Source: a virus
Taxonomy: Duplodnaviria > Caudoviricetes
Strand: one strand, 5' to 3'
DNA length: 25,553 nucleotides
IMG/VR virus record: IMGVR_UViG_3300012942_000125
Span: 1-25,553 of that record
Under the pieces are notes generated by a model, which made no database searches, was not told where the DNA came from, and saw nothing but the letters and a program-made list of their open reading frames with translations. A program made the position numbers and the translations under genes. Position 1 is the first letter of the stretch. The number at the start of each line of letters is the position of its first letter. Of this stretch, positions 1,487-3,679 are shown one piece after another.

Positions 1487-1604
1487 GTTTAGACCCTCCT
1501 CGCCCAGCGCCAGGCGAACGATTTCCAAACAAAAAGCCTATTGGATTGGGAAAATCCCTGATTTCCCGGGCATAATTTCCCTGCTGATTGTCGTAACATG
1601 ACGC

Positions 1605-1817
1605 TTACACTCGCAGGCTCTTGGGGTTGGCTTTGATGCCCAGGGCGACGGCGGCTTTATGCGCCTGGCCACGGCGACCTACGCGCTTGCCGCGCAGGAT
1701 GTCGTGGATGGTGTAGCGAGACACGCCAAGCTGGCGGGCGAAGTCGACGATGGATATCCCATTGGCGACCAGCCATTCGGCGGCCTGTTCCGGCGTGCGC
1801 AGTGTGGAGGTGCTCAC
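1605..1817 (-). CDS. Ner/Cro-like small DNA-binding protein (BcepMu gp16-like)
   Basis: LRTPEQAAEWLVANGISIVDFARQLGVSRYTIHDILRGKRVGRRGQAHKAAVALGIK; first gene divergent from the repressor. GTG 1817 follows AGGAG (alternative ATG at 1847). Confidence 0.85.
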   Translation of the reverse strand: MSTSTLRTPEQAAEWLVANGISIVDFARQLGVSRYTIHDILRGKRVGRRGQAHKAAVALGIKANPKSLRV

Positions 1818-1883
1818 AACGTGTGCTCCTTTTTTTGGTTCCGTCATGTGGCAATGACGGGTGTTACTAGTGCGTATGTGGTG

Positions 1884-1912
1884 ATTATAGGAACCAAACG
1901 GTTTCTTGTAAA
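1884..1912 (-). promoter_or_regulatory. Leftward early sigma70 promoter (Pe-like)
   Basis: On the minus strand: TTTACA (1912-1907), a 17-bp spacer, then TATAAT (1889-1884). Confidence 0.85.
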
Positions 1913-1936
1913 GAAAATAATGAACCGAACGGTGTC
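1891..1936. promoter_or_regulatory. Two candidate repressor operators
   Basis: GAACCAAACGGTTTC (1891-1905) and GAACCGAACGGTGTC (1922-1936) are 13/15 identical with an ACC-N4-GGT dyad. The first fills the promoter spacer. Confidence 0.7.
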
Positions 1937-2381
1937 CATTGGAGATAGGCTTAAGGAAGAGCGTCTGCGCTTAGGTATGACTCAGCCCGTTATGGGAGAA
2001 ACGGGAGGCGTCACAAAGAAATCACAGATGCTTTATGAGTCTGGCGAGCGTTTTCCGGACGCAAGATATCTGGCCGCCATAGAGGCAATTGGGGCTGACG
2101 TTATCTACGTGTTGACGGGCCAGCGTTCAAATGCCGCGATGTCGCAGCATCTGACTCCCAAAGAGCAGATTGTCTTGGATGCTTATCGCTCGGGCACGAT
2201 CGAGCAGCAGGACTTCATCTTGAAGGCGGCGCTGGGGTTCGCAGGCACCGGCGAATCCTTGGCACGCCCCCAGCCCGGGGCGAGTGCTGTGCGCCAGAAG
2301 GTCAAAGATAATCACGGCGTCATGATCGTTTCGGGCAGGGATGTCATGGCGGACAAGAAGAGCCAGGGGAATAAGAAATGA
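1920..2381 (+). CDS. Phage immunity repressor, XRE/HTH_3 family, without peptidase S24 domain
   Basis: IGDRLKEERLRLGMTQPVMGETGGVTKKSQMLYESGERFPDARYLAAIEAIGADVIYVLTG is a classic XRE HTH, divergent from the ner-like gene. Start is ATG 1920 or GTG 1932. Confidence 0.9.
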   Translation: MNRTVSIGDRLKEERLRLGMTQPVMGETGGVTKKSQMLYESGERFPDARYLAAIEAIGADVIYVLTGQRSNAAMSQHLTPKEQIVLDAYRSGTIEQQDFILKAALGFAGTGESLARPQPGASAVRQKVKDNHGVMIVSGRDVMADKKSQGNKK

Positions 2382-2545
2382 TGTGCGAACAGATCATCCA
2401 TGACAATCACGGTGTCATGATCGTAGCTGCGCCAGGAAGTCAGGTAATCATTGTTCTGGGAGAGTTAAAAAAAGAGGGCGAATATATAGAATTGATGCGA
2501 TGGAATGAGCCAATTCAAAGACATCTGCAACCTGAAGTCGCATAG
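2378..2545 (+). CDS. Small unannotated protein (55 aa) sharing the DNHGVMIV motif with the repressor tail
   Basis: ATGA overlap with the repressor stop. Translates MMCEQIIHDNHGVMIVAAPGSQVIIVLGELKKEGEYIELMRWNEPIQRHLQPEVA*. Shorter than any ORF in the supplied track. Confidence 0.65.
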   Translation: MMCEQIIHDNHGVMIVAAPGSQVIIVLGELKKEGEYIELMRWNEPIQRHLQPEVA

Positions 2546-2560
2546 CTTGGCTTTTTTTTT
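2535..2560 (+). terminator. Possible weak intrinsic terminator closing the repressor operon
   Basis: AAGTCG/TGGCTT stem (with G-U pairs) running into T9 at 2552-2560. Confidence 0.35.
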
Positions 2561-2622
2561 ACGCCCACTGGTAACAGGATAATTCGTACAATAAGCGCGT
2601 GTTTTAAGCCGAGGCCGGGAGA

Positions 2623-3219
2623 ATGAAAAAAATTTGGTGTGTGCTGGCATTACTTGTGAGCACGGCCAGTGCGGCGCAATTGCATTTGCCTGGACTAGGC
2701 TGGAAGCTGGTGTCCGACAACAGCGCAGACATTAATGCATGGCACAAGAACAAAACCGAGGCAAAACACGTGCTGGAATATGCCGACAAGCTGATGGTTG
2801 ACTCTCTCGCTATCGCTCAGATACAGCGTAATGGTGGAGGGCCTGCGGTAGTAGCTCATTCAAAGGAAATCAATTCAACCAGCGATGAGCTGAAAAAGAT
2901 TGGACCAAACCCCGGCCCGCTGTCGCATTGCGGCGCTGCAGGTTCTTACCTGATATTGTTCTGGAGCGAATTGCTCAGCGGTCGTAACCAGGCAGGCATA
3001 GCGCGGGCGCTGGCCACATATAAAGATAATCATGAGGCCTGTCTTGATCAGATCGAGTCGCCGCCTGAGCTAGAGTATGAAATACTCGGCCCAAATCGAG
3101 ATGATGCTGTACTGTCAAATGGGTGTACGACGATAGTGCCTCAAGATGGCGACAAAACGGTCACATGGTTCTGCAAAGCTCGCGTGCTGCGTGCGGCAGG
3201 CTTCATAAAGCAGTCATAG
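2623..3219 (+). CDS. Accessory (moron-like) exported protein, unknown function
   Basis: Signal peptide MKKIWCVLALLVSTASA-AQ, GGGAG RBS, four mature Cys. Visibly AT-richer than the flanking structural genes. Confidence 0.75.
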   Translation: MKKIWCVLALLVSTASAAQLHLPGLGWKLVSDNSADINAWHKNKTEAKHVLEYADKLMVDSLAIAQIQRNGGGPAVVAHSKEINSTSDELKKIGPNPGPLSHCGAAGSYLILFWSELLSGRNQAGIARALATYKDNHEACLDQIESPPELEYEILGPNRDDAVLSNGCTTIVPQDGDKTVTWFCKARVLRAAGFIKQS

Positions 3220-3229
3220 TACATACCAG

Positions 3230-3274
3230 TTTTGCCCTAGTTCCAAAGACTCTCCGGAGGATCCCGATCATGAT
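3230..3274 (+). promoter_or_regulatory. Late promoter 1 (lysis/packaging operon), activator-site motif plus -10
   Basis: TTTTGCCCTAGTTCCAAAGAC, 18 nt, CATGAT. The motif recurs at 11079 and 22827. Confidence 0.75.
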
Positions 3275-3322
3275 GAAGCCTCATCGCTTCATCGTGGTTC
3301 CATCGATCCGACCGGAGAGTTC

Positions 3323-3679
3323 ATGTGTAATCTTCCCCTTCATCGACGCCTTCCCCGGCTGACCAGTTTCGTCCTGCTGGTCGTCCTGCTGATCATCCTG
3401 ATCGCCGCGATCGCTCCGGTGCAACTGCCGGTTGTCGCCTACAAGCTCACGCTCATTTCGCTGGCCGCCATCGTTGCCTATTGGCTGGATCGCACACTGT
3501 TTCCGTATGCGCGCCCGGACGGCTACCTGCTCAAAGACTGGCGTGAAGGGGCCTGCATCGGTACCAGCCCCGTCGATTACCCAATCGTTCAGGAATACCG
3601 CATCGCCTTCATCGGCGCCTGCCTACGGCGCGCCATTGTCGTGCTCGCTGTCGTGATCGGCGTGGCGCTGGGGCTGTGA
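3323..3679 (+). CDS. Putative holin (2-3 TM)
   Basis: Hydrophobic helices, LAAIVAYWLDRTLFPYARPDG motif, C-terminal RRAIVV...VALGL. Directly precedes the endolysin. Confidence 0.85.
   Translation: MCNLPLHRRLPRLTSFVLLVVLLIILIAAIAPVQLPVVAYKLTLISLAAIVAYWLDRTLFPYARPDGYLLKDWREGACIGTSPVDYPIVQEYRIAFIGACLRRAIVVLAVVIGVALGL

Follow-up and report, generated by a model that had tools for sequence, protein, structure and literature searches.

The immunity region of a B3/BcepMu-like prophage

Gene content, compared to the annotated Fc22 and BcepMu records, identifies the stretch of DNA analyzed here (25,553 nucleotides, referred to as the window) as part of a transposable prophage of the B3/BcepMu-like group. 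The transposase of such a prophage lies outside the window. The immunity region has the layout known for this phage group. On the left, divergent genes were found for a gp16-like HTH protein and for CII-like, IclR-like and DUF3102 proteins. Based on Pfam and PHROG matches, the rightward order is repressor, an ORF of 55 amino acids (aa), an exported-looking protein, a holin and an SLT lysin. The divergent small HTH gene (1605..1847, - strand; PHROG 925, E=4e-21) encodes a Cro/Ner-like protein and is the first gene of the early operon, in the same position as BcepMu gp16. A putative early promoter (TTTACA-17-TATAAT, 11 of 12 consensus positions) is located at 1884..1912 on the - strand. A 15-mer resembling an operator is present in two + strand copies that are identical at 13 of 15 positions, one at 1891..1905, overlapping the early promoter-like site, and one at 1922..1936, at the start of the repressor gene. 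These 15-mers are likely operators; the chance figure for the pattern is circular because the pattern was designed from these same two copies.

The repressor is an XRE-family immunity repressor of 153 aa (1920..2381, + strand), with homologues annotated as repressors (Fc22 gp19, BcepMu gp17). Its start is most likely at 1920, where the homologues start, rather than at the upstream ATG at 1659. An AlphaFold2 model built on an alignment of 90 sequences displays an HTH DNA-binding domain (residues 7-66; 1938..2117, + strand; pLDDT 92-98; matches to P22 c2 and 434), followed by a two-helix hairpin (residues 80-108; 2157..2243, + strand) and a low-confidence, unstructured tail. Foldseek searches with this model ranked P22 c2 first and SinR/SinI (1b0n_A) second, the latter a weak match spanning 107 columns across HTH and hairpin (E=2.6e-3, rmsd 7.1). 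Judged from the model, the hairpin is likely to be a SinR-like dimerisation hook. It was noted in the preliminary description of the locus that the repressor has no S24 autocleavage domain, and Pfam, PHROG and the structural model agree: all family matches are confined to the N-terminal part, and the model shows no further domain. The window repressor is not of the self-cleaving LexA/lambda CI-type, and the 45 repressors of the matched pairs described below are 124-156 aa long. The predicted-disordered tail harbours the motif QKVKDNHGVMIV (2295..2330, + strand), which is followed by a basic end and sits ~16 residues ahead of the end of the protein. When the repressor P0008 is compared to the window (1920-2381), the HTH recognition region is much less conserved than the hairpin and tail, suggesting that immunity specificity is swapped while the tail module stays.

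Downstream of the 55-aa ORF, a 198-aa protein is encoded (2623..3219, + strand) with, by eye, a signal-peptide-like N-terminus and a weak match to PHROG 29261. It is not part of the motif pair and is dissimilar to the gene at the same position in locus L089. Contigs of one sequencing run match positions 1532-3278 with zero indels; this run is possibly the source sample and hence not independent. In this run (X1), loose ends and variant pieces were observed at window positions 1513-1599, 2190-2223 and 3229-3400, pointing to related prophages in the same sample.

The 55-aa ORF and its repeated motif

The 55-aa ORF (2378..2545, + strand) overlaps the repressor stop codon by ATGA. A Shine-Dalgarno-like AGGGGA (2365..2370, + strand), 7 nt ahead of its ATG, may serve as ribosome binding site; the junction in L089 is similar. 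ORF residues 5-16 form the partner motif QIIHDNHGVMIV (2390..2425, + strand), which is followed by AAPGSQV, and little else is present in the protein. Two 24-nt copies, at 2307-2330 in the repressor gene and at 2402-2425 in the ORF, translate to the identical peptide DNHGVMIV; the three differences between them are synonymous and fall on third codon positions. This repeat and the ATGA-coupled ORF had been reported in the preliminary description and were confirmed on the sequence. The repeat extends to 35 nt with 80% identity, the copies being 95 nt apart, which adds a common Gln seven residues ahead of the Gly. Under neutral substitution, the probability that all three differences are synonymous is p = 0.007-0.014, varying with the transition bias. 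An exact common stretch of at least 8 aa was found in 7 of 27,060 non-cognate tail/next-gene pairs, which is chance level, and the window's own tail/partner pair (score 49) ranked 1 of 165 both in its row and in its column. Over the 45 matched pairs, the same codon is used at 201 of 434 shared degenerate residues compared to 183.6 expected, with two of the 45 alignments (L238 and L076) looking off-register. Synonymous sites are therefore near saturation, and the match is kept at the peptide level. G, N, Q, V and H are overrepresented 1.9-2.8x in the motif segments, and L, P and R are underrepresented. The G-phi-Q-phi-G core of RHIM, PP and BASS3 motifs is absent in the window; it was found in 2 of 165 tails and 2 of 165 partners.

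Protein collections already list the ORF as a predicted gene. Family searches, Pfam and PHROG included, revealed zero family matches for it. A word-indexed homologue search returned only the ORF itself, and an Atlas search gave no usable match. Alignment searches with the close clade returned nothing in viral contigs, one locus in species genomes and, in metagenomes, the window itself plus two false matches within unrelated chromosomal genes. Four matches of the short-ORF profile to long repeat proteins were rejected as Ig/Fn3-like repeats. Two short relatives were identified, namely a 42-aa ORF behind the L089 repressor, annotated as hypothetical in NCBI, and the 34-aa P0036, found by full profile search. 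These two have 11-14 of 23 residues in common with the window ORF, and all three proteins keep AAPGS[QH]V, which lies beyond the part matched by the repressor; residues 33-55 of the window ORF are without counterpart in the other two. Identity between the window ORF and the L089 ORF by codon position is 17/22/11 of 32 (p=0.012). The two short relatives and this codon-position signature argue that the 55-aa ORF encodes a real microprotein. Together with the synonymous-only differences and the near-saturated synonymous sites, the signature also bears out the earlier proposal that selection acts on the peptide and not on the DNA.

The contigs given for P0036 and for the repressor P0008 have the same length (118,384 nt), and the two genes are presumably adjacent. 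The window tail is identical to its own ORF at 9 of 12 positions and to P0036 at 7 of 12; the P0008 tail is identical to P0036 at 9 of 12 and to the window ORF at 6 of 12. In L089, the closest locus, the tail matches its own partner weakly (3 of 12 identical, score 19), which counts against homotypic matching.

The ORF is A+T-rich (GC 0.435 compared to 0.62 for the window), contains an A7 run at 2466-2472 and is followed by a T9 run at 2552-2560, just past its stop codon; no + strand terminator was called around 2552-2560. A hydrophobic 19-mer (mean 1.73) spans residues 12-30. An AlphaFold2 monomer model of the ORF, which carries little weight as it is based on a 2-sequence alignment, shows an unstructured motif and a hairpin at residues 22-45. 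Among the top-scoring six-frame segments no second motif partner was seen elsewhere in the window. A frameshift fusion of the ORF with the gene at 2623 was rejected, as the other two frames close before 2623 and the contigs are without indel.

Covariation of tail and partner across related loci

In total 469 loci were gathered, the window included, of which 458 with a repressor and downstream DNA were grouped into 182 clusters at 70% identity. Of these clusters 165 were tested; 17 were dropped, six because they had been found through the partner and the others because they were of S24 length, truncated or without a downstream ORF. The last 40 residues of each repressor were scored against the first 60 residues of the next ORFs of each locus. 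For the 107 long-tailed clusters, the cognate scores add up to 3420 compared to 2335+-62 in 20,000 permutations (z=17.6; permutation maximum 2635). The 58 short-tailed clusters showed a cognate excess of z=2.1, and a set of 52 clusters chosen without use of the cognate score gave z=13.7, a few of its matches being helical, not beta. Kinship was controlled for with disjoint pairs of nearest relatives, taken from a tree built without the tail: the own partner beat the swapped one in 20 of 22 (p=1e-4) and in 27 of 34 (p=8e-4) pairs. Four motif classes, defined by regular expressions that were hand-written after the data had been seen, agree within loci, with 0, 1, 4 and 1 discordant cases among 33 motif-bearing clusters. 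Small phylogenetically independent pair tests per class pointed in the same direction, none reaching p<0.05 at the median. The covariation of the tail with the downstream N-terminus that had been proposed for homologous loci thus clearly holds (z=17.6; 20/22 pairs), and the pairing of tail and partner motifs is a family trait that is locus-specific at the sequence level.

At a score of at least 32, the next gene matches in 45 of the 107 long tails. The 62 long tails whose next gene is without such a match count against a homotypic reading. Many of these are helical tails of another type, several are motif tails that remain orphan within the DNA examined (e.g. L059, L341 and L052), and in four loci a matching partner was found displaced by 327-1527 nt downstream, which argues against a scar of local duplication. 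Starting from the other side, the repressor was located upstream in 80 of 80 loci found via one partner family, and an identical six-residue motif was present in both proteins in 58 of these.

Partners elsewhere are mostly long, and the window represents the minimal, motif-only form. At least 70 aa are found in 40 of the 45 matched partners, that of the window being one of five below this length. Predicted membrane anchors are frequent: 25 of 45 pass a crude hydropathy cut-off, although some terminal anchors escape it and the motif of the window itself is among the segments that pass. Many long partners have a helical domain with sub-threshold similarity to the anti-repressor PHROGs 245 and 2127, to Flk and to ORF6C. 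In the L027 and L068 partners, the cytoplasmic part resembles the flagellar regulator Flk (E=7e-16 and 2e-14), which is far below the family cut-off. The partners of L233, L248, L210, L230, L231, L236, L238, L321 and L060 form a GxVQxG-motif class with a Trp/Leu/Lys-rich N-terminal segment, a soluble helical domain and no transmembrane segment; some motifs of this class carry the RHIM-type G-phi-Q-phi-G core. L089, L029 and L395 likewise have a short motif ORF followed by an exported-looking protein that is encoded separately. In L009, the nearest neighbour of the window in the tree, a motif-only segment is in frame with the subsequent signal-peptide-like protein (2487-3155). Frameshifted or truncated long partners elsewhere also leave motif-only ORFs (L469, L010 and L407). 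In L469 (Escherichia phage 520873; 2409-3021) the partner gene is unannotated and in pieces, the first of which is a motif-only ORF of 55 aa.

A possible repressor switch and its relation to known systems

Like-with-like binding would best explain why a disordered, beta-biased segment is matched between two co-encoded proteins, locus by locus and at the level of the peptide. It is probable, going by these sequence patterns, that the motif copies of tail and partner co-assemble homotypically; the repressor would be titrated or sequestered in this way, and a RecA-independent exit from lysogeny would thereby be tuned. Owing to the ATGA overlap, the 55-aa ORF would be co-translated with the repressor, and its product would thus be present in the lysogen. 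The motif copies may stack as a beta-arch or cross-beta assembly. The chance that this assembly is amyloid-like is rated a little short of even; otherwise a small beta-strand-exchanged oligomer would be formed. In bacterial amyloid signalling (BASS) pairs it is the sensor that carries the N-terminal copy, the C-terminal one being part of the regulated protein; by analogy, the partner may act as trigger or titrator and the repressor as its target. Long membrane partners would pass on an envelope signal through their anchor. With no sensor domain, the motif-only form would most likely cap or seed repressor tails and in this way set a threshold. It is somewhat more likely that the partner lowers repression than that it stabilises it. 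Co-expression with the repressor would be atypical for an antirepressor and weighs against the mechanism; the same holds for the AlphaFold2 monomers of repressor and ORF, in both of which the motif is unstructured. In a stronger version, for which the analysis leaves a rather low probability, a widespread family of S24-less repressors of Mu-like and P2-like prophages would be switched by amyloid templating, the partner nucleating a cross-beta assembly of the tail, and the minimal form of 34-55 aa would act here as a free seed or cap. This would constitute a RecA-independent, possibly heritable lysis-lysogeny switch with a specificity encoded by the motif.

Other explanations for the pairing have to be weighed. 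The pair might work in the reverse direction as a defence switch, with the tail of the repressor of a resident or superinfecting phage as the seed and the partner as a membrane-acting effector of abortive infection or exclusion. Known amyloid motif pairs do govern cell death, including the prophage-borne Bab/Agp, as far as described in the available text (10.1101/2024.11.07.622273), 25 of the 45 matched partners pass the hydropathy cut-off, several others begin with a Trp/Leu/Lys-rich, amphipathic-looking segment, and the window ORF has its hydrophobic 19-mer. However, this stretch is the motif itself, interrupted by PGSQ and modelled as a strand, none of the 22 partners scanned matched Bell or another death-domain family, and in the pairs described in those parts of the literature that were accessible the C-terminal motif belongs to the effector, whereas here it belongs to the repressor. 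A defence switch is regarded as unlikely. An equally unlikely explanation holds that the two copies have a common binding target in the host, a protease, adaptor or other protein, and that the partner, as a decoy, shields the repressor from degradation, comparable to the C-terminal ClpX signal of Mu. The predicted disorder of the repressor tail would suit such a role, but close relatives show joint changes of motif type in the two genes, something a conserved host target would not call for. Moreover, the repressor motif lies ~16 residues from the end, and that of the partner is N-terminal, often with 100-250 residues following it.

Broken long partners can look like the window ORF, and in a further reading the family system is real but the 55-aa ORF is left over from a long membrane partner, in decay and with no present function. 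Its probability is lower still than that of a decoy. The first pieces of L469 (55 aa), L010 and L407, which carry only the motif, the A7 run and the absence of a counterpart for residues 33-55 in the two short relatives fit a remnant, but none of 46 long downstream proteins used as queries left a trace in the 1 kb after the motif. The short relatives keep AAPGS[QH]V and the coding signature, the short-motif-ORF layout recurs in three other loci (L089, L029, L395), the motif match of the window is among the tightest seen, and neither of the other two frames stays open as far as 2623. Two copies 95 nt apart that are 80% identical across 35 nt might also stem from a neutral tandem duplication or represent a DNA or RNA site present twice. 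This is largely refuted and very improbable, as none of the three differences alters the peptide, synonymous sites are near saturation over 45 pairs, displaced partners exist and the operator-like sites differ in sequence.

Co-assembly of tail and partner, the preferred reading, has its closest precedents in two systems. In BASS1-10 (10.1101/2020.01.06.895854), BASS11 Bab/Agp (10.1101/2024.11.07.622273) and fungal HET-S/NWD2, a short motif is likewise common to a C-terminus and the N-terminus encoded by an adjacent, often overlapping gene. In BASS pairs there are also many motif families of comparable length with a G/N/Q/V bias, which diversify yet stay matched within pairs. The amyloid-pair architecture of the preliminary description therefore stands as regards layout; its RHIM-like label does not, the window being without the G-phi-Q-phi-G core. 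Unlike in BASS, no NLR (NACHT/NB-ARC) or TGP receptor was found in the window ORF or in 22 other partners, and the partner here is nearly the motif alone. Unlike in both BASS and HET-S, the C-terminal motif is on an XRE DNA-binding repressor, which has no Bell/HeLo or other death domain. SinR/SinI of Bacillus subtilis, as far as covered by the text available (PMC3163267), is similar in combining an XRE HTH with a two-helix hook (1b0n, the weak Foldseek match) and in having a small protein that copies the C-terminal interaction element of the repressor. In SinI the copied element is helical and a four-helix bundle is formed, whereas here a beta-type motif in the disordered tail beyond the hairpin is copied, and the partner gene, unlike that of SinI, is downstream and overlapping. 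A hairpin profile gave no match to the window ORF, which is not a SinI-type helical copy. The pair works like BASS in layout and covariation and like SinR/SinI in logic, and is a member of neither.

Three phage systems are related as well. The repressor of phage Mu has a DNA-binding fold that differs from that of the window repressor. Mu also is a transposable phage with a non-LexA-type repressor and a regulatory C-terminal tail carrying a ClpX signal; a matched downstream protein is not described in the available part of that report (PMC10584840). Qtip of phage VP882 provides a precedent for repressor sequestration by a small phage protein and for RecA-free repressor control, but Qtip binds the N-terminus of the repressor and is induced by quorum sensing, and the abstract mentions no motif in common with the repressor (10.1101/2019.12.16.877910). 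BcepMu (NC_005882), an isolated phage, belongs to this family and shows an identical layout, the tail of gp17 being matched by the N-terminus of gp18, with an ATGA overlap. It differs in having another motif class and in gp18 being a membrane protein of 260 aa. The partial literature searched revealed no function or motif pairing for gp17/gp18.

More generally, no description of a repressor-partner motif pair was found in the literature, the search covering titles and abstract openings, with most subscription papers outside its scope. The terms 'repressor' and 'HTH' occur nowhere in the accessible text of 10.1101/2024.11.07.622273, and a term search of the accessible text of PMC12261475 for 'phage', 'HTH' and 'repressor' gave no hit. 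The paired-motif architecture with transcriptional output, represented here by its minimal form, was thus not found in print. The exit of Mu-like and other S24-less prophages from lysogeny is an open question. SOS-independent induction is poorly understood according to the available part of a 2026 review (PMC13492144), and the early genes of BcepMu rise after peroxide treatment by a route left unexplained in the accessible text (PMC2830190). In the BASS literature, as far as its texts were available, amyloid motif pairs act on cell-death effectors (10.1101/2020.01.06.895854, 10.1101/2024.11.07.622273). If the mechanism is correct, a pair ending on a DNA-binding repressor would carry amyloid signalling into transcription and into a phage decision switch. 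Within the family, the motif-only partner is the member that is easiest to test. Matched, switchable motif classes are possible tags for orthogonal interactions, and cross-talk between prophages residing in one host could be explained by them.

A helical counterpart of the pairing was found within the same family. A nearby ORF copies the helical hairpin of the repressor in 5 of 58 short-tailed loci compared to 0 of 107 long-tailed loci (p=0.005). These ORFs are located at +639 (L355), +954 (L301), +104 (L384), +1634 (L056) and +488 (L045) from the repressor stop; L023 and L055 were added by eye. They encode proteins of 53-134 aa without HTH that are, by their sequences, candidate SinI-like antirepressors. 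Their design is parallel to that of the tail-motif partners and follows the same mimic logic. The 56-aa partner in L036 (507-674) unites the two types of mimic, as it carries the beta motif and, after it, an apparent copy of the repressor's first hairpin helix. In L026 and L048 a second HTH repressor-like gene is located directly 3' of the first.
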